From positions 96,001 through 160,000 of the forward strand of contig CAWGJO010000027.1 in NCBI GenBank assembly GCA_963822945.1: a DNA stretch of 64,000 nt, read 5' to 3'. The notes under the pieces were generated by a model. It saw nothing but the letters and a program-made list of their open reading frames with translations. It was not told the origin of the DNA and did no database searches. The position numbers and the translations under genes are program-made. Below, piece after piece: positions 1,187-58,358 of this stretch. Origin of the DNA: an uncultured Gemmatimonadaceae bacterium. Its GTDB lineage: Bacteria > Gemmatimonadota > Gemmatimonadetes > Gemmatimonadales > Gemmatimonadaceae. Position 1 is the stretch's first letter. Every line of letters begins with the position of its first letter.

Positions 1187-4356
<3,170 letters not shown>

Positions 4357-4357
<1 letters not shown>

Positions 4358-4647
4358 TGAAGACGATTTTCATCATTCACGCGGGGGCCGACGAGCACCG
4401 CGTCCCCCGGTTGCTCGAGAAGCACGGAGCCAGGGGCTACACGCAGATCGGCCAGGGCACGGGGGCCGGCAGTTCGGGGCGGCTCGAGGGCACCCGGGCC
4501 TGGCCCGGCCATGCCACGCTCTGGCTCACGATCATTCGCGACGAGGAGGCCGACGTACTCGTGAAAGCCCTCCGCGAGGTCAAGGAACATCTCGAGCCGG
4601 GGGAGCATCTGCACGCCTCGGTGATGCAGACCGACGATTTCATCTGA
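4357..4647 (+). CDS. PII-like small protein associated with RND transporter (PG0541-like)
   Basis: 96 aa, start overlaps RND stop; GYT...GTGAG...GTRAWPG pattern of PII-like fold proteins. Confidence 0.7.
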
Positions 4648-4653
4648 CCGGCG

Positions 4654-4678
4654 GCCCGCCCCGACCGCCGGGGCGGGC
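4654..4678 (+). terminator. GC-rich hairpin after the RND operon (terminator-like or mRNA-stabilising)
   Basis: GCCCGCCCCG-N5-CGGGGCGGGC 10-bp stem; no U tract. Confidence 0.45.
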
Positions 4679-4711
4679 ACCGGTCGAATCAACCGATGGG
4701 GAGATTCGATT

Positions 4712-4912
4712 ATGTGTGACGACAAGGTGATCCGCCGGATCGCCGGAGTATTCGTGATGGCCTCGGTGGCCCTCGCCTGGTGGGTGTCGCCCTGGTGGCT
4801 GTTGTTCACGGCCTTCGTGGGCTTCAATCTGTTCCAGTCCAGTCTGACCAACATCTGCCCGCTGGAGCGCGTCCTCGGGCGGTTCGGACTGGCCGGCTGC
4901 AAGCCGCGTTGA
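4712..4912 (+). CDS. DUF2892 / YgaP-like membrane domain protein
   Basis: 66 aa, two TM helices, FVGFNLFQS...CP motif; GGAG RBS. Confidence 0.85.
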   Translation: MCDDKVIRRIAGVFVMASVALAWWVSPWWLLFTAFVGFNLFQSSLTNICPLERVLGRFGLAGCKPR

Positions 4913-5001
4913 GCGCGGTGGGGTTGATCGTGGCCCGGCTTCCGGTGCATGATCAACCATATCGCCAGATGGTCAATTCACACCGGCCAGAGTGTCCTCG
5001 C

Positions 5002-5334
5002 ATGAGCAACGCCAAGATGACCCCGGAACTGCTTTCGCTGATCGCCGACCGCTTCAAGGTGTTGGCGGAACCGGCGCGGCTGCAGATCCTTCAGGCCCTA
5101 CGCGCCGGCGAACGCTCGGTGAGCGACCTGGCCCATGACACGGGACTGGGACAGGCGAACCTGTCCAAGCACCTGCGCGGTCTGTACGACGGCGGCTTCG
5201 TGGAGCGCCATCGGGAAGGATTGTTCGTGATCTACCGGCTGGCGGACAAGGACGTCTTCCGCATCTGCGACCTGATGTGCGGCCGGCTGGAAGAACTCAG
5301 CACGAAACGAAGGAAACTGTTGGCCACGCGGTAG
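5002..5334 (+). CDS. ArsR/SmtB family transcriptional regulator
   Basis: FKVLAEPARLQIL...QANLSKHL...YRL winged HTH; start placed at ATG 5002 within ORF 4780..5334. Confidence 0.92.
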   Translation: MSNAKMTPELLSLIADRFKVLAEPARLQILQALRAGERSVSDLAHDTGLGQANLSKHLRGLYDGGFVERHREGLFVIYRLADKDVFRICDLMCGRLEELSTKRRKLLATR

Positions 5335-5337
5335 CGC

Positions 5338-7059
5338 ATGGAAAACGCGGAGATCGCCCGGCTCTTCCGCGAGATGGCGGAACTGCTCGAAGTCGAGGGG
5401 GCGAATACGTTCCGCATCCGGGCGTACCGCAACGCGGCCCGCGTGGTCGAGGAGCACACCGAGCCGATTGCGGAGTTGCTCCAGCACGACGGAACGAAGC
5501 TGCAGGAACTGCCGGGCATCGGCGCCGACCTGGCCGGAAAGATCGAGGAGATCGTCCGCACCGGATCGCTCGGGGCGCTGAAGCAGGCACGGCGCGCGGC
5601 GCCCAGGGGTGCCGTGGAACTGATGCGCGTGCCGGGCATCGGGCCCATCCGCGCGCGCACGCTGGCCGAGAAGCTCGGCATCCGGTCGGTGGCAGGTCTC
5701 GAGAGGGCCGCCAAGGCGGGGAAGATTCGCCGGCTCCCCGGGTTCGGCGCGGCCAGCGAGCAGAAGATCCTCACCGAACTCGCGGCGCGCTCCGGGGGCG
5801 AGCACCGCATTGCCCGGGCGACCGCCGCGCAGTACGGCGAGTCGATGCTCGCCTACCTTCGCGCATTTCCGGGGGTGAAGCGGGCCGACATTGCCGGGAG
5901 CTTCCGCCGGGGACGCGAGACGGTGGGCGACCTCGACATCCTGGTCGAATGCGCCGATGGGCAGGCCGTGTCGGATCACTTCGTGGCCTATCCCGAGGTC
6001 CGCGAGGTGTTGGCGCACGGATCGACCAAGGCGTCCGTGGTCCTGCGATCCGGCCTGCAGATCGACCTGCGCGTGCTCGACGCGAAGTCCTATGGCGCGG
6101 GTCTCTACTACTTCACCGGGTCCAAGGCGCACAACATCGCGGTGCGGCGTCTGGGGCAGAAGCGCGGGCTCAAGATCAACGAGTACGGCGTCTTCCGCGG
6201 AGCGAAGCAGCTCGGCGGCCGGAACGAGTTGGACGTCTTCAGGTCGGTGGGACTGCCCTTCATCCCTCCGGAATTGCGCGAGGACCGCGGCGAAATAGAG
6301 GCGGCGCGGCAGAAGCGGCTCCCGTCGCTGGTGACGCTCGACGACATCCGTGGCGACCTCCAGATGCACAGCACCGACAGCGACGGGCGGGTGTCACTCC
6401 AGGAGATGGCCGAGACCGCCGAGTCCATGGGATACGAGTACATCGCGATCACCGACCATGGGCCGATGATGCGCATGGTCCAGGGGCTCGACGACGCGGG
6501 TTTCAGACGCCAGCGGAAGAAGATCGACAAGCTCAACGCGAAGCTGCGGAAGCTCACCGTGCTTGCCGGTGCCGAGGTGGACATCCATCCCGACGGAACG
6601 CTCGACCTCAAGGACGACACGCTGGCCGCGCTCGACATCGTGTTCGTGGCGCTGCACGTCAAGCTCGATCTCGAGCCGGCGAAACAGACGGAGCGCGTGC
6701 TGAAAGCGCTCTCCCATCCGAACGTGGATGTCTTCGCGCACCCCACGGGCCGGTTGATCAACGGCCGTCGCGGGGCGCGGTTCGATTTCGACCGCATGGT
6801 GAAGGCGGCGGTGGATCACGGCGTGCTGCTGGAGGTCGATGCGCAACCGGAGCGGCTGGACCTCGACGACGTGTCGGTGCGCGCCGCGATCGGCGCCGGC
6901 GCGCGGATCGTCATCGACACCGATGCGCATTCGCCCGCCGAGCTGCGGTTCATGCGTTGGGGCGTGGACCAGGCCCGGCGCGGCTGGGCCGAAAAGGCGG
7001 ACGTGGCGAATACGCGGCCCTTGTCGCGGTTCGTGAAGCTCCTCCATACGCACCGCTGA
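5338..7059 (+). CDS. polX: DNA polymerase X / PHP 3'-5' exonuclease
   Basis: FRIRAY, GSFRRG, GDLDIL and QIDLR (three catalytic Asp present), YFTGSK, PELRE, C-terminal PHP domain (TDH, AHPTGR, TDAH). Confidence 0.95.
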   Translation: MENAEIARLFREMAELLEVEGANTFRIRAYRNAARVVEEHTEPIAELLQHDGTKLQELPGIGADLAGKIEEIVRTGSLGALKQARRAAPRGAVELMRVPGIGPIRARTLAEKLGIRSVAGLERAAKAGKIRRLPGFGAASEQKILTELAARSGGEHRIARATAAQYGESMLAYLRAFPGVKRADIAGSFRRGRETVGDLDILVECADGQAVSDHFVAYPEVREVLAHGSTKASVVLRSGLQIDLRVLDAKSYGAGLYYFTGSKAHNIAVRRLGQKRGLKINEYGVFRGAKQLGGRNELDVFRSVGLPFIPPELREDRGEIEAARQKRLPSLVTLDDIRGDLQMHSTDSDGRVSLQEMAETAESMGYEYIAITDHGPMMRMVQGLDDAGFRRQRKKIDKLNAKLRKLTVLAGAEVDIHPDGTLDLKDDTLAALDIVFVALHVKLDLEPAKQTERVLKALSHPNVDVFAHPTGRLINGRRGARFDFDRMVKAAVDHGVLLEVDAQPERLDLDDVSVRAAIGAGARIVIDTDAHSPAELRFMRWGVDQARRGWAEKADVANTRPLSRFVKLLHTHR

Positions 7060-30067: not shown

Positions 30068-30436
30068 CTCCTCGGTGAATAACCCGATGTCCGACAGCGT
30101 GTTGCCGCCGGACGGGGACAGAATGCCAAAGGGGGGGCCCGGACGGTGTCGGGGGATGGAGGAAACGGTTGGTGGGGACGACTACGGAGGTGTAGGGAAA
30201 TCCCCGACGCTGGCAGATTTGCGGTAGATGGCCGGCTTTTCCGGTCCTGCGGCCTGATGCGTTGCGCAAGCCGCCCCCTATTCCTGCGGCCGCGTGATCT
30301 CCTGGGGCACTTCGATGTCCGCCGCGGCCTGCTCACAACCGGAGCGTTCCGGGCGGATGGGATCGTCGAGCGAAGCCGTGAGAATCTCAACCCCCTCCAC
30401 CCGGAACGCCGCGGCCGGATCGGGCCTCAGACCGGC

Positions 30437-46633: not shown

Positions 46634-47044
46634 ATGCCGAAATCACTGATCAAATCCCCCCAGCTCCCCGCGCTCCGCGATTCTGCGTACCAGATCTGGC
46701 TGGCCGGACTGGGCGCGCTCTCGATGGCCGAGGATGAGAGCGGGAAGATCTTCAAGACGCTCGTCAAACGGGGCAAGACCTTCGAAGCGGCGAGCAAGGA
46801 TCGCCTGACCAACGTGCGGAACGCCCTCGACATCCGGAAAGCGGCGAGCGACACGATGAGCCGCATCACCGACAACCTGGACGACGGGGTGAACGGGGTG
46901 CTGGGTCGCCTGGGTCTGCCGAGCAAGAAGGAGATCGATGCGCTCGGCAAGCGGGTCGATCGGCTCACGAAGGCGCTCGAAGAGAAGCCGGTGAAGCGGG
47001 CACGCCGGGCGCCGGCGAAACGCCGCCGCGCTGCGACGGTCTGA
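46634..47044 (+). CDS. Phasin / PHA granule-associated protein (PhaI/PhaF-like)
   Basis: QIWLAGLGA, GKIFKTLV, LGLPSKKEI, basic C-terminal tail; AGGAG RBS. Confidence 0.88.
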   Translation: MPKSLIKSPQLPALRDSAYQIWLAGLGALSMAEDESGKIFKTLVKRGKTFEAASKDRLTNVRNALDIRKAASDTMSRITDNLDDGVNGVLGRLGLPSKKEIDALGKRVDRLTKALEEKPVKRARRAPAKRRRAATV

Positions 47045-47047
47045 TGA

Positions 47048-47128
47048 GTCGGTAGGTCGGTAGGTCGGTAGGTCGGAGAACGACGAACGTGGTTGACGTT
47101 CGGACGTACCGACCTACCGCCCTACCGA
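47048..47128. repeat. Octamer repeats in inverted arrangement (REP-like hairpin)
   Basis: (GTCGGTAG)x3 at 47048-47071 facing TACCGACCTACCGCCCTACCGA at 47107-47128. Confidence 0.8.
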
Positions 47129-47166
47129 TGCACGAGCTTCCGACCGGCACGAACTCGGAGATTGCC

Positions 47167-48396
47167 ATGCCCTCTTCACGCAAGCCGAAGATCGGTCTCG
47201 CGCTCGCCGGCGGCGGGCCGGTGGGTGCGATGTACGAGATCGGCGCGCTGCGCGCGCTCGAGGAGGCCGTGGACGGGCTCGATCTCAATCACGTGCACAG
47301 CTACGTGGGCGTGAGCGCCGGATCGTTCATTGCCGCCTGTCTCGCCAACGGGCTCACCACCACGCAGATGCTGCGCGCCGCGCTGCGCGACGAGCCCGGC
47401 GTGAACCCGCTGCGTCCCGAGATCTTCTTCACGCCGGCGTACCGCGAGTTCGTGCATCGCGGATTCAAGCTGCCGCGGCTGCTCGCGGAATCGGTGGCCG
47501 AATTCGTTCGGCGGCCGGGGGCGCAGGGGCTCGGCTCGGCGATGAACTATCTGATGCAGGCGCTCCCCGTCGGCGTGTTCGACAACGAACCCATCCGCGC
47601 CTACATGCACGAGATCTTCTCGATGGAAGGGCGCACCGACGATTTCCGGGAGCTCGGCGGCCGGCTCACCGTCGTTTCCGCCGATCTGGATTCGGGGCGT
47701 GCCATCCGGTTCGGCGGCCCGGGGTGGGACCACGTGCCGATCTCCACGGCGGTGCAGGCGAGCACCGCGGTACCGGGGCTCTATCCCCCGGTGTGCATCG
47801 AGGGGCGGCAGTGCGTGGACGGGGTGCTCCTCAAGACCGTACACGCGTCGGTGGCGCTGGAGCAGGGCGCCGACCTGCTGTTCTGCATCAACCCCATCGT
47901 GCCCATCGACGCGGCCGCCGCCGCGGCGGCGGGGCGGCTGCCCGACGACGTCGTGGTGCAGTCGGGCTTGCCGGCCGTGCTGTCGCAGACCTTCCGGACC
48001 CTCATCCACTCGCGGCTGCGCGTGGGCTTCGCCCGATATTCGACGCGCTTTCCCGATGCCGACGTCGTTCTGCTGGAACCCGACGAGATGGAGTACGAAC
48101 TGTTCTTCGCCAACGTGTTCAGCTTCCGGTCGCGCCGCCACATCTGCCGCAGCGGGTACGAGGCCACACGTCGCATCCTGCGCCAGCGCTACGACGAACT
48201 CGAGCCGGTGCTCGCGTCGCACGGCCTCGACCTGCGCGCGGATGTGCTGGAGGACCGGACCCGCGATCTCTGGAGCAGCGCCGGGTTGGCGCCCGACACC
48301 AGGCCGCGCGTGGCGCCGCCCAGCGTGACCGATGCGCTCAGTCGTGCGCTCGATCGGGTCGAGGCGGTAGCGGCCGCTCGCTCAGCCGCCAGATGA
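47167..48396 (+). CDS. Patatin-like phospholipase family protein
   Basis: LALAGGG oxyanion loop, GVSAG nucleophile, ASTAVP, DGV. Confidence 0.9.
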   Translation: MPSSRKPKIGLALAGGGPVGAMYEIGALRALEEAVDGLDLNHVHSYVGVSAGSFIAACLANGLTTTQMLRAALRDEPGVNPLRPEIFFTPAYREFVHRGFKLPRLLAESVAEFVRRPGAQGLGSAMNYLMQALPVGVFDNEPIRAYMHEIFSMEGRTDDFRELGGRLTVVSADLDSGRAIRFGGPGWDHVPISTAVQASTAVPGLYPPVCIEGRQCVDGVLLKTVHASVALEQGADLLFCINPIVPIDAAAAAAAGRLPDDVVVQSGLPAVLSQTFRTLIHSRLRVGFARYSTRFPDADVVLLEPDEMEYELFFANVFSFRSRRHICRSGYEATRRILRQRYDELEPVLASHGLDLRADVLEDRTRDLWSSAGLAPDTRPRVAPPSVTDALSRALDRVEAVAAARSAAR

Positions 48397-49556
48397 AGGT
48401 CCCCTGGGCCTCGCAGCGCTGTTCGCGGGTCATGCCGCGGTAGCCGCATGGCGGCCGGCGCAGCCACCGCGCCAGCGAGAGCAGCGGCCATCCGAACGGC
48501 AGATAGAACGCCAGCAGGTCGAAGTCGCGCAGCGCGGCGTGGAGCCAGTTTCGCGCCGGCGGGCGCCGGCGGTCGCGGTCGTTGCGGATGAACGTGACCG
48601 GCCATCCCGTGGGGAGCACGTGCCGCAGGATGCCGCGCGCTCCCGCCTTGCGCAGGCCGGCGCGCAGCGACTGCCAGTTGTACGGCCGTTGGCCATACTG
48701 CGCCACCTGCGCGTTCAGTTGCGCCTGCATCAGCTTGCGGAACCGGTGCGCCGCGCGGTCGAGCGCATTTCGATCAGGCTCGTCGTGATCGGACACGCCC
48801 ACCTCGTGCAGCACCGACCAGACATCGATCGGATCGCCGATCACGAACGTCATGTGCGCGGGCAGCGCCAGATACCACATCCACGGAAAGATCACTGCCA
48901 GCAGCCCCGCCGGCAGCGGCAGGAATGGCACGTGGAAGAAGCGCTGCATCACGCCGGTCCAGCGGCGGGAAGGTGACGTGGAAGGGCATCACCCATTCCG
49001 CGTTCACCACCGACACCGGGTAGATGGGCACGTCGTGGCGCGCCGCCAGCCGCACGAAGCTCGTCCGGAAGCGCTGCAGTTGGTAGCGATGCTGGAAGCC
49101 CTTCCCGATGCCCGGCACGCCCTCGGGGTAGTAGATCACGCGATCGCCGCGTTCGAGCAGGCGCTCGAAGTTGTCGAACGTCATGTCCACACCGCCGCCG
49201 CGCCGCCAGAGGTTGTCCACGCCGAACGGCCGCATCCACCACGCCAGCGTGAGTTCCTTCTCGAACACCGAACGACACTTGGCCTCGGGGCGCAGCCCGT
49301 CACGGCGCCAGAGCGCGAAGTCGAACACGATGGCGTCGTATGGAAACGCGGTGCCGCTGTGGTTCGTGGCGATTACCGCCGGCCCCTCGGCCGGCAGCTT
49401 CTCGGCACCAATCATGCGCGCCCGGAAGTAGTAGTCCGAGAGCGGCCCCACGGCATGCTTCAACAGGTCGCGGCAGTAGTCGGCCTCGAACGGCTCGTAG
49501 TCGTTGGCCGTGCGCGCTTCGCCGGCCGGCGGGAGCATGGTCGCGGTGGGCGTCAT
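48338..49556 (-). pseudogene. PlsC-like acyltransferase with one frameshift near 48953 (possibly sequence error)
   Basis: NHSG...YD, YPEG, RFRTSFVRLA; reading continues as VMQRFF...IGDPI after one extra base. Confidence 0.75.
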
Positions 49557-49560
49557 CGGA

Positions 49561-51273
49561 TCACCCGCCGCGCCGGAAGGCCAGCAGCACGGCGGCCGCG
49601 AACAATCCCGCCCACAGTGGCCAGGTGCCGCCGAACGCCATGATGATCGCGCCGGCCACCAGGCAGAACCCCGCCAGCAGCGTGGCCCGCACGCCCTGCA
49701 GCGGGTTCTCCGCCGGCGGCCGCGTGCTGCGCTCCAGCACGCGCACACCCTCGGTGACCAGCGACGGCAGCTTCACCGCCGCATCGATCAGCTCGGGCGC
49801 TCCCCGCAGGCCCTCGTGCACGAAGCGCAAGGGACTGAACTGCTCCAGGAACACCGTGCGGATGTGCCGCCGCGACACGTCGGCCACGTCGAAGTCGGGA
49901 AGCAGCACGTGCCCCACCCCCTCGAACGTCACCAGCGCCTTGACCATGAGCACCAGTTCCACCGGGAAGTACATCCGGTACTGCGCGCCGCGGGTCACCG
50001 ACTCCAGCACCAGCTGGGCGAGCGAGAACGAGTCGAAGCTCGACGCCCGGTGCCAGCGGGCCGAGATCTCCGACACGTCGCGGCGGAATCCGGCTGGATC
50101 GCCGTCCCGGCCCGGCTCTGCCACCGCCGCCAGGTAGCGCGCCGCGTTCTCGTGGTCGCCGGTCACCAGCGAGTAGTAGTAGTACAGCAGCGCCCGCCGC
50201 AGGTCGCTCTCGAACCGCCCCACCATGCCGAGGTCGATGAACCCCACGCGGGCGCCCGGCAGCACGAGCAGGTTGCCCGGATGCAGGTCGGCGTGGAAGA
50301 AGCCGTCGCGGTAGAGCATCCGGATGATCGACTCGGAGCCCAGGTCCACCAGGTGATCCCGTTCCTCCTCGCTCAGCGCCAGCGCTTCCGGCGAATCCGG
50401 ACGTACGCCGTCCAGGTATTCCATCGTCAGCACGCGCATCCCGCTGCGGTGCCGGTCCACCGTCGGGAAGACGACGTCCGACATGTCGCGGAAGTTGGTC
50501 GCGAAGTTCTCGGCGTTGTCGGCTTCGCGGCGCAGGTCCACCTCGCGGAGCGTGTACTCGCAGAACTCGGCGATGATGCGTTTGGGCTGATAGCGCGGGA
50601 TCACCGCCTGGAGGCCGGCGCCGAGCACGCGCAACAGGCGCGCGTCACGCTTGAGCGTCTCGGCCACGCCCGGCTTCACCGCCTTGATCACCACGTCTTC
50701 ACCGGTGAGCGTCGTCGCCCGGTGGATCTGCGCAATGGAGGCGGAGCCCAGCGGCTCGGGGTCGATCCACGAGTACAGCCGGTCCACCGGACGGCCGAGG
50801 TCCCGCTCCACGAGCGCCGTGAACTGCGCGAACGGAATCACCGGCAGCCGGTTGAGCAGGTTGCGCAGTTCGGTCGTCACCGAATGCGGCAGGATGTCCT
50901 CGCGCAGACTCAGGATCTGCCCGAGCTTGATGTACGTGGGACCCAGCAACTCCAGCCGGCGGCGGAACTGCTGGGGAAAGGGCAGGTCCACCAGGTCGCG
51001 CCGCAGCAGGGGGTGCGTGACGGCGCCGATGGCCCGCGCCAGTGCGTACTTGAGGCCCTTGGCGGTGGGCGCGTCGCGCTGCGCGCGCGTCCAGGCGATG
51101 ATCGCACCAAACAGCAGACCCGCCAGGTGGCGGTTGGTGCTCATGGCGCGGCGCACGATGCCCGGCGGCGGACGAGTGCTCGCTTGCTCGACCACGGCCG
51201 CCGGTTCATGCCCAACGGCCGACTGTCGACTCGCCGCCGGCGGCCGCATCTTCACCGCCGCATGCGCCGTCAT
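49561..51273 (-). CDS. AarF/ABC1/UbiB family atypical kinase
   Basis: LGPTYIKLGQ, SASIAQIH, EVDL, FFHADLHPGN, DLGMVG; C-terminal TMs. Confidence 0.94.
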   Translation of the reverse strand: MTAHAAVKMRPPAASRQSAVGHEPAAVVEQASTRPPPGIVRRAMSTNRHLAGLLFGAIIAWTRAQRDAPTAKGLKYALARAIGAVTHPLLRRDLVDLPFPQQFRRRLELLGPTYIKLGQILSLREDILPHSVTTELRNLLNRLPVIPFAQFTALVERDLGRPVDRLYSWIDPEPLGSASIAQIHRATTLTGEDVVIKAVKPGVAETLKRDARLLRVLGAGLQAVIPRYQPKRIIAEFCEYTLREVDLRREADNAENFATNFRDMSDVVFPTVDRHRSGMRVLTMEYLDGVRPDSPEALALSEEERDHLVDLGSESIIRMLYRDGFFHADLHPGNLLVLPGARVGFIDLGMVGRFESDLRRALLYYYYSLVTGDHENAARYLAAVAEPGRDGDPAGFRRDVSEISARWHRASSFDSFSLAQLVLESVTRGAQYRMYFPVELVLMVKALVTFEGVGHVLLPDFDVADVSRRHIRTVFLEQFSPLRFVHEGLRGAPELIDAAVKLPSLVTEGVRVLERSTRPPAENPLQGVRATLLAGFCLVAGAIIMAFGGTWPLWAGLFAAAVLLAFRRGG

Positions 51274-52508
51274 CGATTGCGTCCCAGCTGCTCGTGCGCC
51301 GACACCCACTCCAACGACGAGATCGCCGACGCCAGCGACAATTCGCCGGCCAGCACGGTGGCGGCCACGATTTCGGCCAGCTTGTCGACGTGGCCCTTGC
51401 CCCAACAGCCGAGCATCTGCAGACATTCGCGCTGCGTGGGCAGGTGCGTGCCGCCGCCGTGCGTGGCCACGATCAGGCTCGGGATGGTGATCGAGAAGTA
51501 CAGGCTGCCGTCGTGCGTGATCTCCGTGTAGGTCGTGGCCGCCGCGCCCTCGGTCACGTTGGCCACGTCCTGGCCGGTGGCGATGAACATCGCCGTGATC
51601 GCGTTGGCGGAGTGCAGCCCGTTGTTGTTGGCGCCCGAGAGCAGCGCGGCGACGTTCGCCACACCCCAGTGGTAGGCCAACTGCTCAGGCTCGGCGTGCA
51701 GATGCTTGCGGAGGAGATCGTGCGGAATCGTGGCCTCGGCCGTCACACGCTTGCCGCGCGGATGCAGGATGTTGACGCGCGACGCCTTCTTGTCGGTGGC
51801 GAAGTTCGACTCGAGGTACGCGCGGCGCACCGCGCGGTGGTTGGCCAGGATCCACTGATAGGCCGCGTACGTCGCCTTGCCCACCATGTTCTGTCCGGCC
51901 GCGTCGCCCGTGGTGAAGTTGAACCGGAGAAACGCGAACTTGTTGGACAGGAAGGGCTCGATGTGCGTGAGCCGGGCCACGTGCGACGTCGCCTGGGCCA
52001 CGGCGCGAATCGCGTCCATGTGCGCTTCGATCCACCCCAGGAAATCGCGGGCCTCGCGGGCCGACTCGAAGATGAACACCGGCGCCCGCTGCATGCCGTC
52101 GCCGGACACGGTGGTCTTCACGCCGCCGGCCAGACTCACGACCTTCATGCCCCGGCTGTACGACGCCACCAGAGAGCCTTCGGTGGTTGCGAGCGGGATG
52201 AAGAAGTCGCCGTGCGCATGCTCGCCGTCGATGTACAGCGGCCCCGCGATGCCGAGCGGCACCTGCGCCACCCCGGTGAAGTTCTCGATGTTGCCGCGCG
52301 TCTCCGACGGCTCGAGCGAGTACGAGGACACGTGCTTCAGGCGCACGCCGCGCTCGCGCTCGACGAACGCCTGCCGTGCGGCGATCAGCGCCGGTTCGTA
52401 GTCCTCGGGCCGCCCCTTGGCATGTGGGATGTGGTCGACGTCGGCGTTGTGAGTCGCGGAGGCGGCGGGCGCGGACCCGCGATCGACCAGGGAGGATGAC
52501 GTACCCAT
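51270..52508 (-). CDS. Hydroxymethylglutaryl-CoA reductase-like protein (class I type)
   Basis: IENFTG, PLATTEGSLVAS, TGDAAGQNM, TGQD, GGGT, GELS, C-terminal His (AHEQLGR). Confidence 0.88.
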   Translation of the reverse strand: MGTSSSLVDRGSAPAASATHNADVDHIPHAKGRPEDYEPALIAARQAFVERERGVRLKHVSSYSLEPSETRGNIENFTGVAQVPLGIAGPLYIDGEHAHGDFFIPLATTEGSLVASYSRGMKVVSLAGGVKTTVSGDGMQRAPVFIFESAREARDFLGWIEAHMDAIRAVAQATSHVARLTHIEPFLSNKFAFLRFNFTTGDAAGQNMVGKATYAAYQWILANHRAVRRAYLESNFATDKKASRVNILHPRGKRVTAEATIPHDLLRKHLHAEPEQLAYHWGVANVAALLSGANNNGLHSANAITAMFIATGQDVANVTEGAAATTYTEITHDGSLYFSITIPSLIVATHGGGTHLPTQRECLQMLGCWGKGHVDKLAEIVAATVLAGELSLASAISSLEWVSAHEQLGRNR

Positions 52509-52857
52509 TGGTCCCTCGTGGATGGACACCGTAGGATGTGCGCGAACGTCTGCCCCAGGTATCAGGTGCGTGCGCCGGATCTGTAGGCCGTTCCCTCACG
52601 CTCTCCGGGTCGGCCCTTGGCGGTCGGCAGTTCGGGATTCGTTGCTGAGTGCCGACGGTCGACTCTCGACGCGAAACACCCGAGTGTTCGCCGCCACCTG
52701 TTCCCTCCACTCTCCCTACGCGGCGTCCTCCTGCTGCATGGAGAAGTTCAGGGTTTTCCTGAATTGGCGGAACTTTCGAAAGGGGCGAACTTCACTTCGT
52801 GTTCGCGGACGGGAATACCGCGAACGGAGCCAACCCGCGGGATACCGTCGGCTGGCA

Positions 52858-53095
52858 GCGCGGTGGGAGTTCGACCCCAACTGCGCAGGTTGTGAGGTCG
52901 CTGGACACAACTGTAGTCCCGAGAGCCAAGGGGCACCTGAATCGGTCCCGTCCGATGAGGGTAAGATTGCCGGCCAGATCACCTGTTCGCATGTCTTCAG
53001 TGCCGTCGCTCAGGTGAAGCCGAAACGACCGACCGGTAATCGCCAGCGGGTCAGAACCCTCGCCGGAGGCAGTGATGCCGACGACGAGGGTTCGC
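52858..53095 (+). ncRNA. Candidate structured non-coding RNA of unknown class
   Basis: Nested long-range helices, possible pseudoknot and GNRA-capped hairpin in an intergenic region without a credible ORF; strand inferred from GNRA loop and G-U pairs. Confidence 0.5.
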
Positions 53096-53154
53096 CACAT
53101 CCGGGCCTCGCGTACCGAGCGTATCACCACGTCGCACGCACACGGAGGTGAACG

Positions 53155-53580
53155 ATGAGCTCCGGTCTCACGACGCTCCCCGTGGGCGAGTGGCGCGTGG
53201 AGTTGCGCGGCGACACGCGTGACGAACTGTTCAGCCGGGTCGCCACGCTGATCGCGTGCGCGGCGGGCCGTACCAATGGCACGCACGGCACGTGGGAGCC
53301 GGTCGCGCTGTCGGCGCGCGACGACGCCGCGCTCCTCGCCGGCTGGGCCAACGAACTCATCGGACGCGGCGAGGCCTCGGGCATGGCCTACGCCGAGGTG
53401 CGCAACATCGAACTCTCGCCGCCGGGGGGCCGCGCGTCTCCGGCGTGGCATCTTACCGCGGAGATTCGCGGTCGCCCGGTGGACGATTGGCGATCGTCGC
53501 TCAAGGCGGCCAATGGCCGCCGGGCAGGACTCGAGCGTCGCGGCGGCCAGTGGCACGCCACGTTATCGTTCGATATCTGA
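53155..53580 (+). CDS. Archease-like protein with degenerate motifs
   Basis: 141 aa; GDTRDELF, LLAGWANELI, LKAA, C-terminal FDI; GGAGGTG RBS. Confidence 0.75.
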   Translation: MSSGLTTLPVGEWRVELRGDTRDELFSRVATLIACAAGRTNGTHGTWEPVALSARDDAALLAGWANELIGRGEASGMAYAEVRNIELSPPGGRASPAWHLTAEIRGRPVDDWRSSLKAANGRRAGLERRGGQWHATLSFDI

Positions 53581-53711
53581 ACAACGCCGGCGGCCGCGGG
53601 AGATGTCGTGCGCCCCGTGGAAGTGATGGCGACGTGAACGGCGAGGAGCACGTGGTCCGGATCGTGCGCGATCTGGCGCGCGAACTGCACGGCGATCGCG
53701 CCGGCAACTTC

Positions 53712-56797: not shown

Positions 56798-57088
56798 ATG
56801 CTGAATTCGATCCGCCGTTCCCTCTCCGACCCCCAGATTCAGACCGTCCTCGGCGAGCGGCTCCGCAGCTACCGCAAGGCCCACGGCCTCTCCCTCGACG
56901 CACTCGCCGAACGGACCGGACTCTCCGCGCTCACCATCCACAAGGCCGAGCACGGCGGCAACTTCACCATCCGCACGCTGCTCCGGGTGCTGCGCGCCCT
57001 GGACCGCCTCGAGCAGCTCGACGCCTGCCTGCCACCGGCCCCGCGTTCACCGCTCGACCTCATCGACGAGGAATCCCCGGTTGGCTGA
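56798..57088 (+). CDS. XRE-family HTH antitoxin (HipB-like)
   Basis: LGERLRSYR...LAERTGLS...AEHG HTH; overlaps hipA start. Confidence 0.88.
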   Translation: MLNSIRRSLSDPQIQTVLGERLRSYRKAHGLSLDALAERTGLSALTIHKAEHGGNFTIRTLLRVLRALDRLEQLDACLPPAPRSPLDLIDEESPVG

Positions 57089-58358
57089 CCGCATCGCCGC
57101 ACGCATCGTGCTCTGGGACCGCACCGTCGGCGCCGTGGCCGAGGAGCCGTCGGGACAGGTGGTGTTCCAGTACGACCCCGCGTTCCGCCGCAGCGGTTTG
57201 GAAATCTCGCCGCGGCATCTCCCGCTCTCGCTCGCGGCGCCCATCACCTTTCCCGCGCTCCGCCACCTCGAGGCGTTCATGGGACTCCCCGGCGTACTCG
57301 CCGACGGACTCCCCGACCGGTTCGGCAGCGCGCTCATCCGCCAGTACTTCACTCGCGCGGGCACGCCGGAGAAGGCGGACCGCCCCATCCAGCGCCTGCT
57401 CTACGTGGGGCGCCGCGCCATGGGCGCGCTGGAGTTCCTGCCCGCGCTCGACGTCGGCCCCGCGGTGGAGGAGATCATCCAGCTCAAGCACCTGGTGGAC
57501 GAGGCGCGGATCGTGGTGCAGGGAAAGTTCGACGTCGCGGTGCCCGAGATGATGCGCATGGGAACTTCGGCCGGTGGCGCGCGCCCCAAGGCTCTGATTC
57601 TCTGGAACCGGAAGACGAACGAGGTCCGGAGCGGATTCGCCGCGCCCGGCGAGGGCGACGAATCGTGGATGCTCAAGTTCGACGGCGTCGGAGAACTCGA
57701 CGCTCCCAATCCGCACCCGCAGCCCTATACGCGAATCGAGTACGCCTACACGCGCATGGCCGGCGCCGCGGGACTCGCGACCACGGAAGTCGAACTGCTC
57801 CCCGACCGGCGGCTGCATCATCTGCTCGTCAAGCGGTTCGACCGCGACGACGCCGGGCGCCTCCACTACCACAGCCTTGGCGGGATCGACCACGCCGACT
57901 ACAACGCGCCCGGCGCCTATTCGTACGAACAGTACCTGCTCGTCTGCCGCGAACTCGGCCTCGGGCCGGCCGAGCTCGACGAAGCATTCCGGCGCGCCGT
58001 GTTCAACGTCGCGGCCGTCAATCAGGACGACCACGTGAAGAACTTCGGCTTCCTCATGGATCGCCACGGGCGCTGGTCGCTCGCGCCGGCCTTCGACCTC
58101 ACCTACGCGCAGGGCGCGGGGTACACGCGCCGGCACCAGATGACGCTGAACGGAAAGACCGACGGCTTCACGCGCGACGACCTGCTCGCGTTGGGCCGCT
58201 CGCTCGGCGTCAGGAAGGACGGTGCGCTCGTGATCGATCGGGTGCTCGACGCGGTGGGCCAGTGGCCGGAGTTCGCCGCCGACGCCGGGGTGCCGGCCGA
58301 TCGCGCGCGGGCCATCGGGGCGGCGCACCGGCGCACGGCGCTCGCCGCCACACGGTAG
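57081..58358 (+). CDS. hipA: Type II toxin-antitoxin system HipA family kinase toxin
   Basis: LPDRFG, SAGGARPK, LKFD, KRFDR, NQDDHVKNFGF, LAPAFDL. Confidence 0.93.
   Translation: MADRIAARIVLWDRTVGAVAEEPSGQVVFQYDPAFRRSGLEISPRHLPLSLAAPITFPALRHLEAFMGLPGVLADGLPDRFGSALIRQYFTRAGTPEKADRPIQRLLYVGRRAMGALEFLPALDVGPAVEEIIQLKHLVDEARIVVQGKFDVAVPEMMRMGTSAGGARPKALILWNRKTNEVRSGFAAPGEGDESWMLKFDGVGELDAPNPHPQPYTRIEYAYTRMAGAAGLATTEVELLPDRRLHHLLVKRFDRDDAGRLHYHSLGGIDHADYNAPGAYSYEQYLLVCRELGLGPAELDEAFRRAVFNVAAVNQDDHVKNFGFLMDRHGRWSLAPAFDLTYAQGAGYTRRHQMTLNGKTDGFTRDDLLALGRSLGVRKDGALVIDRVLDAVGQWPEFAADAGVPADRARAIGAAHRRTALAATR

Follow-up and report, generated by a model that had tools for sequence, protein, structure and literature searches.

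A free-standing, pseudoknotted RNA of Gemmatimonadota: an apparently undescribed class with predicted low-oxygen control in Gemmatimonadaceae

The locus raises the question whether the non-coding DNA in front of an atypical archease gene encodes a structured RNA, and whether such an RNA controls this gene or is a gene in its own right. It lies on contig C27 of the genome of an uncultured Gemmatimonadaceae bacterium (G000). The window, to which all coordinates refer, is the 64,000-nucleotide stretch of this contig that was analyzed. A sequence-only reading had proposed a novel structured RNA of ~200-240 nt at 52858-53095. All sequence stretches that it named were present where it had placed them, and the interval folded better than shuffled controls (z -3.1, with 1 of 200 shuffles as good). 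The expectation of a structured RNA was thus correct, but the actual RNA is larger and differently folded. Conservation begins about 60 nt upstream of 52858, and conservation, metatranscriptome contigs and the lack of a conserved reading frame delimit a non-coding RNA gene of about 299 nt at 52799..53097, with a sigma-70-like promoter in front of it and a terminator hairpin at its end. The gene was assigned to the + strand from the promoter, the terminator and G-U pairing. None of 200 shuffles equaled the folding of the full RNA, 52799-53097 (z -3.67). We are confident that this is a stand-alone, structured and transcribed non-coding RNA gene. It apparently represents an undescribed class of large structured bacterial RNA.

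Homologues were found first of all within the phylum. A blastn search matched 52 of 401 genomes at E<=0.01; among the 30 blastn loci listed, 27 were true homologues and three (L036-L038) were spurious and were dropped. In the MAFFT alignment of the 27 homologues, 85.8% of the cells were paired and 70 of 90 pairs showed changes on both sides, so that the helices covary. In these 27 sequences, none of 500 shuffles reached any of the five structure measures, which also exceeded the slid controls, and RNAalifold independently recovered H2-H6 and the terminator. Matches to sequence patterns were confirmed with R1, a covariance model of the RNA core. Of 120 such matches in GTDB genomes, R1 upheld 59 (43 of 80 and 16 of 40), with titles pointing to Gemmatimonadota in 54 cases, to Gammaproteobacteria in 4 and to no assignment in 1. 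It also upheld 33 of 120 metagenome matches. In total, 101 homologues were aligned, nearly all of them from Gemmatimonadota; 73 sequences kept out of model building formed a held-out set. Among weak pattern matches from other phyla, the 31 loci inspected never had H4, PK3 and terminator together. No small ORF or peptide within the RNA was conserved across homologues, since segment lengths are spread over all three frames.

The predicted fold comprises eight helices (H1-H8), a 3' hairpin and three long-range pseudoknots (PK1-PK3), all on the + strand. H1 (52801..52825) is a hairpin with 81% pairing. The H2 hairpin (52829..52856, 90.7% paired) has both-sided changes in 10 of 11 pairs and a conserved GAYR tetraloop at 52841-52844, which is closed by two pairs in 70 of 89 rows. 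The H3 hairpin (52858..52886), with the loop TTCG at 52870-52873, covaries. H4 (52888..52912) is a hairpin of fixed length, 25 nt, and 98.4% paired; its loop, GAGGTCGCTGG, is the most conserved element of the RNA. H5 (52916-20/52930-34) is variable. H6 (52936-52961) follows the scheme CCT-GA-stem-loop-stem-GA-GGG, with an invariant CC at 52936-37 and an invariant G at 52960, and the ATCGG/CCGAT hairpin recognized earlier was 94.7% paired in the 27 homologues. The H7 arm (52965..53041, stem 52965-73/53033-41) carries H8 and the partner of PK2, and all 7 of 7 modelled pairs show both-sided change; in the form GATTGCCGG/CCGGTAATC, as first proposed, this helix was 80% paired in the 27 homologues, with both-sided changes in 9 of 9 pairs. 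H8 (52979-85/53011-17) varies in length, its arm measuring 30-58 nt, and its TCACCTG/CAGGTGA helix was 74% paired in the same set. Several helices of the sequence-only fold were retained, but it had missed the 5' 60 nt with two hairpins, H3-H5, and two pseudoknots.

In permutation tests, the figures of which are not probabilities because kin sequences are not independent, PK1 (H1 loop 52809-52814 with H6 loop 52946-52951) scored 157 versus 118 for permuted partners in the 27 rows and 346 versus 273 in the 73 held-out rows (0/5000), and PK2 (H3 loop TTCG 52870-52873 with CGAA 53021-53024, beside H8) scored 151 versus 115 and 398 versus 303 (73 rows, 0/5000), respectively. Mutual information on 101 sequences found PK2 unprompted (52872-53022, z 9.0). 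PK3 joins CGCTGG in the H4 loop (52899-52904) to CCAGCG in the 3' tail (53043-53048). This pairing had been recognized before and is present in 96.9% of cases, with both-sided changes in 3 of 6 pairs; it is not the nested helix originally drawn, but a pseudoknot formed by a hairpin loop. In the 27 rows, PK3 scored 162 versus 154 (4/5000). The 73 held-out rows showed no covariation excess for it (457 versus 452), because PK3 hardly varies and the search patterns had already fixed it.

Spacing in the core is nearly fixed (H4, 25±0.1 nt; L3 to L4, 29±0.6 nt; PK2 to PK3, 23±1.3 nt) while the H8 arm varies between 30 and 58 nt, which points to a rigid core with free arms. Two other long-range pairings of the earlier fold did not hold. 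The outer helix (GACC/GGTC) was only 39.6% paired, and its permutation score of 87 against a mean of 86.7 was equaled by 2538 of 5000 shuffles. A pseudoknot between GGCACCTGAA and TTCAGTGCC has its 3' partner in a variable insertion, where 7 of the 8 pairs meet gaps in 17-19 of the 27 rows. The 'switch' that involved the outer helix is thus without support. The alternative fold that would compete with the outer helix is not conserved, and the 3' hairpin is a constant terminator-like stem.

A fourth pseudoknot, of AGGU (52895-98) with ACCU (52935-38), is permitted by one-sided variation, but the rare compensatory changes speak for the H6 pairs. AGGU, exposed in the H4 loop, could also mimic a Shine-Dalgarno sequence, the RNA acting as a base-pairing decoy that holds 30S subunits in dormancy. 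GRGGU is near-invariant, and 5 nt at the 3' end of the 16S RNA of G000 are complementary to it, but the duplex would be only 4-5 bp long with one of them paired in H4, and RCCY at 52935-52938 can engage these bases in pairs or triples, the U-R pair being allowed in 97 of 101 rows. We regard a decoy function as improbable.

A search of the window against Rfam 15 gave no match at the gathering threshold, and at E<=10 the region 52500-53200 had nothing but one 12-bit chance match. No family matched the RNA in 14 diverse homologue loci either. Homologues, covariation and the Rfam search thus bear out the claim of a new conserved structured RNA without an Rfam family. The literature searched, a scope outside which lay most subscription journals and two large discovery supplements, held no description of the RNA, and the motif had no match in the supplement of PMC8632094.

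Several known identities were considered and rejected. ARAGORN found no one- or two-piece tmRNA here, and there is no conserved frame. A permuted tmRNA was considered because no tmRNA was found in the G000 assembly, which is 88% complete; the G000 tmRNA is probably unassembled, and 5 of 5 RNA-positive relatives carry a separate full tmRNA. A tRNA-SeC is present in G000. RNase P RNA and SRP RNA were both found elsewhere in G000, and neither family matched at the RNA. For self-cleaving ribozymes and group I/II introns there was no Rfam match, and the RNA is intergenic in all loci examined. Interlocked T-loops, considered for the TTCGA and CGAAA loops, were rejected as these loops covary as Watson-Crick partners in PK2. 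A REP-like element was likewise dismissed for the 3' hairpin, a hairpin type that is unique in G000.

In order to determine the distribution of the RNA, R1 was run over 151 genomes of the phylum, with 18 candidates scored per genome. There were 22 matches including G000, where the RNA is single-copy, and one spurious match (G102) was dropped. Among the 150 other genomes, 20 were RNA-positive, including 9 of 31 from the family of G000, 9 of 16 from f7 and 1 of 74 from f2. Eight genomes without a true blastn or model match stayed negative with 150 candidates each, and G255 and G283 were positive. Given this patchy presence (20/150), the RNA is dispensable. It was not found in 121 genomes of another phylum (that of G416), a set without a positive control, and was found in 1 of 121 genomes of the family of G412, to which gammaproteobacterial copies belong. 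In a tree of the RNA, Gemmatimonadaceae copies stand apart from those of f7/f4 with moderate support, and three gammaproteobacterial copies (L070, L084, L155) nest among the former, likely as a result of horizontal transfer. The Longimicrobiales-type f7 copies (L183, L185, L187, L188, L030, L064) keep the H3-PK3 core and have longer, different 5' domains. A cultured carrier exists: Gemmatirosa kalamazoonensis KBS708 has two copies on plasmid 2. Two diverged copies lie 1.3 kb apart in G179 (L035:1410-1586 and 2883-3066), and one of the three copies in G283 has a long insertion in the H8 arm (L195; L192/L194).

Such a distribution might be expected of a selfish or passenger RNA, the stable remnant of a mobile element with a structure kept for nuclease resistance or mobility. 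Patchiness, shifting neighbours, the 2-3 copies of some genomes, the plasmid pair and the gammaproteobacterial clade nested among Gemmatimonadaceae copies would fit. However, no transposase, reverse transcriptase or nuclease occurred among the neighbours scanned, phages and viral contigs held no copy, and most genomes have only one. Moreover, a host-type promoter box is conserved, and in Longimicrobiales the RNA is stable beside rnhA or rpmA/chorismate mutase. We therefore consider a selfish origin unlikely.

The RNA gene is preceded by a predicted sigma-70-type promoter at 52764..52792 (+ strand; -35 TTGGCG at 52764-52769, 17-nt spacer, -10 GAACTT at 52787-52792). Homologues have TTGAC/TTGCG and TANNNT-type hexamers at the same place. 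A scan for consensus promoters and terminators found 0, and the promoter copy in this locus is too weak for the promoter consensus. The predicted terminator is the 3' hairpin at 53054..53093 (+ strand), which is contained in the mature RNA and is 95.9% paired; its median energy in 91 homologues was -34.6 kcal/mol, with a U-tract that is weak in many of them.

Parts of 52700-53600 were found in 20 RNA runs from 14 studies, four of which (X1, X2, X3 and X10) were mapped as assembled contigs. The metatranscriptome contigs are restricted to about 52810-53097, and RNA contigs end at 53095-53097. Run X2 covers only 52848-53097, in single contigs with a depth of 2000-5350 and mostly 0-2 mismatches, and has a poly(A) loose end behind 53097. 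In X1, the summed depth was 1e5-3e5 over the RNA and 0-52 over the flanks, with adaptor loose ends at 52811-52812; a 100%-identical contig of depth 11.7 spans the terminator and the archease gene. X3 and X10 cover the RNA at low depth. No joint or back-joint within the RNA was seen in the contigs of the four runs. Depth over RNA and flanks thus differs by three to four orders of magnitude, with contig ends that agree with the predicted gene, although contig depth adds relatives together, carries no strand information and reflects level poorly. The RNA appears to be very abundant in RNA libraries from soil, sediment and marsh, and such reads in environmental libraries are probably discarded as unassigned.

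The genes downstream of the RNA bear directly on its original interpretation as a riboswitch or cis-acting leader of the archease gene. This interpretation could draw on the archease gene, which lies immediately behind the RNA in 7 of the 17 genomes from the genus, and on the low-depth X1 contig that bridges terminator and archease. Across 67 loci, however, the nearest downstream ORF (rough caller) was convergent, and hence faced the RNA, in 41, and it was an archease in 0. Downstream genes were unrelated to each other (rnhA, chorismate mutase, recG, secA, acyl-CoA synthetase and others), and co-oriented downstream genes of one consistent function, the trait of a riboswitch, were not found in these 67 loci. 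With neighbours that differ between loci and mostly point towards it, the RNA is not a riboswitch. In addition, it has a promoter and terminator of its own, no conserved alternative fold, and contigs that stop at the terminator with a depth far above that of the archease gene. We give this explanation hardly any credence.

The link to archease itself holds for part of one genus and not for the phylum. In 7 of 17 genomes of the genus the archease gene is present, always directly behind the RNA, whereas phylum-wide it occurs in 4 of 20 RNA-positive versus 39 of 130 RNA-negative genomes. Behind the RNA in this part of the genus lies a thiamine-binding-protein/archease/rtcB operon: L322, L325 and L326 have an intact Thiamine_BP gene between RNA and archease, and L322, L324 and L325 have rtcB after archease. 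The archease-family ORF of the window (53155..53580, + strand; Pfam Archease, E 4.5e-9) is a deletion fusion, as seen in an alignment of the junction. About 10 codons of the thiamine-binding protein are fused to an archease without its N-terminal His, the KAATYH of relatives reads KAANGR, and rtcB is gone from the RNA locus. A comparison of the ORF with the PDB gave no match at E<=1. It is a decaying passenger, the deletion relic of the operon. Behind it, at 53634..53702 (+ strand), is what is left of an acyl-CoA-synthetase (AMP-binding) gene, a piece of its 5' end identified by tblastx to L011, L012, L090 and L323; the intact AMP-binding gene comes after the RNA in close relatives (Pfam).

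Some observations on the wider surroundings are added here. The host genome has a second archease upstream of rtcB (C21:282402-284280), both split over two reading frames by either a frameshift or a sequencing error. The window also contains a HipBA-type toxin-antitoxin module, consisting of an HTH and a HipA-like kinase gene (56798-58358). In G350, an ORF with a ribosome-inactivating-protein Pfam domain (L349:10617-11189) lies about 3.5 kb from the RNA.

A 17-bp palindromic box abuts the -35 hexamer at 52747..52763 (+ strand), in the position of an activator site. Judged from sequence, it is likely to be the site of a NarL/FixJ-type response regulator. With a matrix trained on the RNA's own promoters, 47 of 88 homologue promoters had a box above 7 bits; its position was mostly constant, and most of these promoters came from Gemmatimonadaceae. 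The box was missing from the other 41, notably from Longimicrobiales copies with canonical TTGACA promoters, so that low-oxygen control cannot be universal. In G000, 46 of 169 box sites lie outside called ORFs against about 19% expected, a modest enrichment. The best intergenic boxes of this genome are located between a PAS sensor and a histidine kinase/REC-LuxR operon, before a hemA operon, before a heavy-metal P-type ATPase gene and, next to a USP/CBS pair, between a sigma-70 gene and feoAB. Genes for HemA, heavy-metal P-type ATPases and FeoAB are typical low-oxygen genes. In locus L339, the box is also found upstream of USP/CBS/BON genes.

A box before a regulator's own operon is the usual mark of an autoregulated cognate site. 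We found the box upstream of a response regulator or histidine kinase-response regulator operon in G000 and in 7 of 12 other genomes (8/13), with 4 genomes lacking it there and 1 ambiguous. In G000 (C20:667355-670950, L356), the PAS sensor gene is divergent from those of the histidine kinase and REC-LuxR regulator, with a perfect box in between; the regulator gene occupies C20:667355-668014. This regulator is a candidate low-oxygen master regulator of Gemmatimonadaceae. It was present in 27 of 31 genomes of the family, comprising 9 of 9 RNA-positive and 18 of 22 RNA-negative ones, and in G027, G036 and G052 it lies within 13-30 kb of the RNA. The window has a second box at 30192-30208 (C27:126192), upstream of a radical-SAM/hemA operon. 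Upstream of the RNA, a storage-lipid cluster (46634-52529) encodes a phasin, a patatin, an acyltransferase, an ABC1 kinase and an HMG-CoA-reductase-like protein. The gene for the latter is divergent from the RNA with the palindromic box in between, which could serve both.

Gene content near the RNA was also consistent with a stress regulon. Three of 20 wide loci (14-17 kb) were USP islands with CBS, PRTase, erythromycin-esterase, BON or phosphoketolase genes, whereas 17 were not stress islands. The three belong to 3 genera and separate RNA clades, and the background was 13 of 3423 windows in G000, a rough figure from one genome. Other neighbours (rtcB, polX, PRPP synthetase, cation ATPase and CBS genes) would fit such a regulon as well. 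We thus suggest that the RNA belongs to a USP/CBS/hemA-type regulon in Gemmatimonadaceae only, and low-oxygen or dormancy control of the RNA in this family is probable.

A comparable known system is the DosR-type dormancy regulon. In it, Rv2630 is archease-like and Rv2626c is a CBS protein, and its small RNA DrrS/MTS1338 is short and does not have the architecture of the present RNA. According to the accessible text of PMC5309233, the mycobacterial DosR regulon includes the RtcB protein Rv2631, the PRTase Rv0571c and the USP Rv2623. The likeness extends, as far as that text goes, to a NarL-family regulator, a palindromic box, and USP, CBS, PRTase, rtcB and cation ATPase genes. The differences are another phylum and another box sequence, and regulation in the present case is predicted from sequence.

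Taken together, we propose, with a probability of about 0.45, that this is a free-standing, pseudoknot-clamped RNA, induced at low oxygen via a NarL/FixJ-type regulator, that serves as a trans-acting scaffold in dormancy. The regulator would switch the gene on under low oxygen, and the ~300-nt transcript would fold into a rigid core clamped by the three long-range pseudoknots. H3 and H4 may be stacked end to end, PK2 and PK3 fastening them along the H7 arm, with H1 kissing H6 and with H5 and H8 as free peripheral arms. The invariant H4 loop and the CC/GG of H6 would form the functional centre. During growth arrest, the core might present the H4 loop, the H6 CC/GG pairs and the GAYR loop of H2 to a partner, and the scaffold RNA would act in trans by binding a protein or ribosomal partner during dormancy. 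Where present, the archease operon would be a passenger transcribed by read-through. The scaffold role is suggested by analogy to raiA and OLE RNAs. As partners, Ro60 (in 0 of 20 RNA-positive genomes) and archease (in 4 of 20) were rejected.

A second reading, which is possible yet rather unlikely, sees a dormancy-induced new ribozyme class or RNA-only assembly acting on cellular RNA together with RtcB-type repair. The core of H4 loop and H6 might cleave, ligate or modify RNA in trans, or the RNA itself, and might supply or draw on RtcB-type RNA repair; we hold this to be doubtful. In the same doubtful variant, the three pseudoknots would hold the RNA together or polymerise it in place of a closing helix. 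A small invariant core in a rigid pseudoknotted frame, a mostly single-copy gene and the adjacency of rtcB in two lineages (L322/L324/L325; L101) argue for it, and most large bacterial ncRNAs of known function are argued to be catalytic in the accessible part of PMC10861870. On the other hand, no self-cleaving-ribozyme or intron family matches, the RNA contigs, taken by themselves, tile the gene unbroken with no joint or back-joint inside, and the proximity of archease/rtcB is absent from most loci and is explained by shared regulon membership. If true, few non-ribosomal RNAs in this major phylum of soil and sediment would be more abundant.

Large, highly structured RNAs encoded by a dedicated gene are uncommon in bacteria, and those of known function mostly have fundamental jobs in catalysis, translation or protein targeting. 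Gemmatimonadota are common in soil, where little is understood of how they persist. Since there are a candidate regulator, a defined box and a cultured carrier, the induction, structure and partner of such a dormancy-linked RNA can be tested directly.

Among known abundant RNAs, 6S/Ms1 RNA is of similar size and also stand-alone, which raises the possibility of a stand-in that binds RNA polymerase when growth stops. Rfam family RF00013 was not detected in any of the 52 genomes from the class but was found in 6 of 9 from the other classes of the phylum, so that the class may have a diverged 6S RNA or none; a diverged 6S locus was sought in G000 via the flanks of four 6S loci, with no tblastn matches. 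The present RNA would suit the role in being abundant, about 300 nt long and stress-linked. However, 6S/Ms1 is a long rod with a central bubble, and the present RNA has neither such a fold nor a 5'-3' closing helix. It is also patchy, occurring in only 20 of 150 genomes although 6S is undetected class-wide, and we judge the substitution to be unlikely. Bacterial Y RNAs, which go with Ro60 and RtcB, share with it the adjacency to rtcB in some loci. The present RNA is three times longer and its TTCGA loop pairs in PK2 instead of forming a T arm. Ro60/TROVE was found in 2 of 151 genomes, neither of them RNA-positive.

OLE, GOLLD and ROOL are likewise large ornate orphan bacterial RNAs, of about 500-900 nt. 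The OLE RNA has an adjacent partner gene, whereas the present RNA is about 300 nt long and has no fixed neighbour and no Rfam match. Its long-range loop pairings could be intermolecular, as in the oligomers of OLE, GOLLD and ROOL described in the accessible portion of PMC12286853.

The closest comparison is with the raiA RNA (RF03072; ModT), of which short segments had loosely reminded the first reading. RF03072 gave no match at E<=10 in 52500-53200, at E<=1 in G000, or on the 14 homologue loci, and the resemblance fails on topology as well. In the accessible parts of PMC10861870 and PMC12968392, the biochemical function of raiA RNA is not known and a link to growth arrest is described; the latter source gives it a closing P1 helix of 5' with 3' end, a four-way junction and two pseudoknots that arise from a single linker, and the former confines it to phyla other than Gemmatimonadota. 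A conserved 5'-3' closing helix of the P1 kind was not found among our homologues, which instead form a string of hairpins with three long-range pseudoknots. The raiA RNA belongs to Bacillota and Actinomycetota and lies near raiA/comFC, the present one to Gemmatimonadota. Both are stand-alone transcripts, the abundance of ours being taken from contig depth only, and both are mostly single-copy, compact, multi-pseudoknotted and 200-300 nt long, with a link to growth arrest that is likely for ours. The novelty is hence at the level of the RNA class: the function is predicted, and the behaviour resembles that of the orphan RNAs raiA and OLE.
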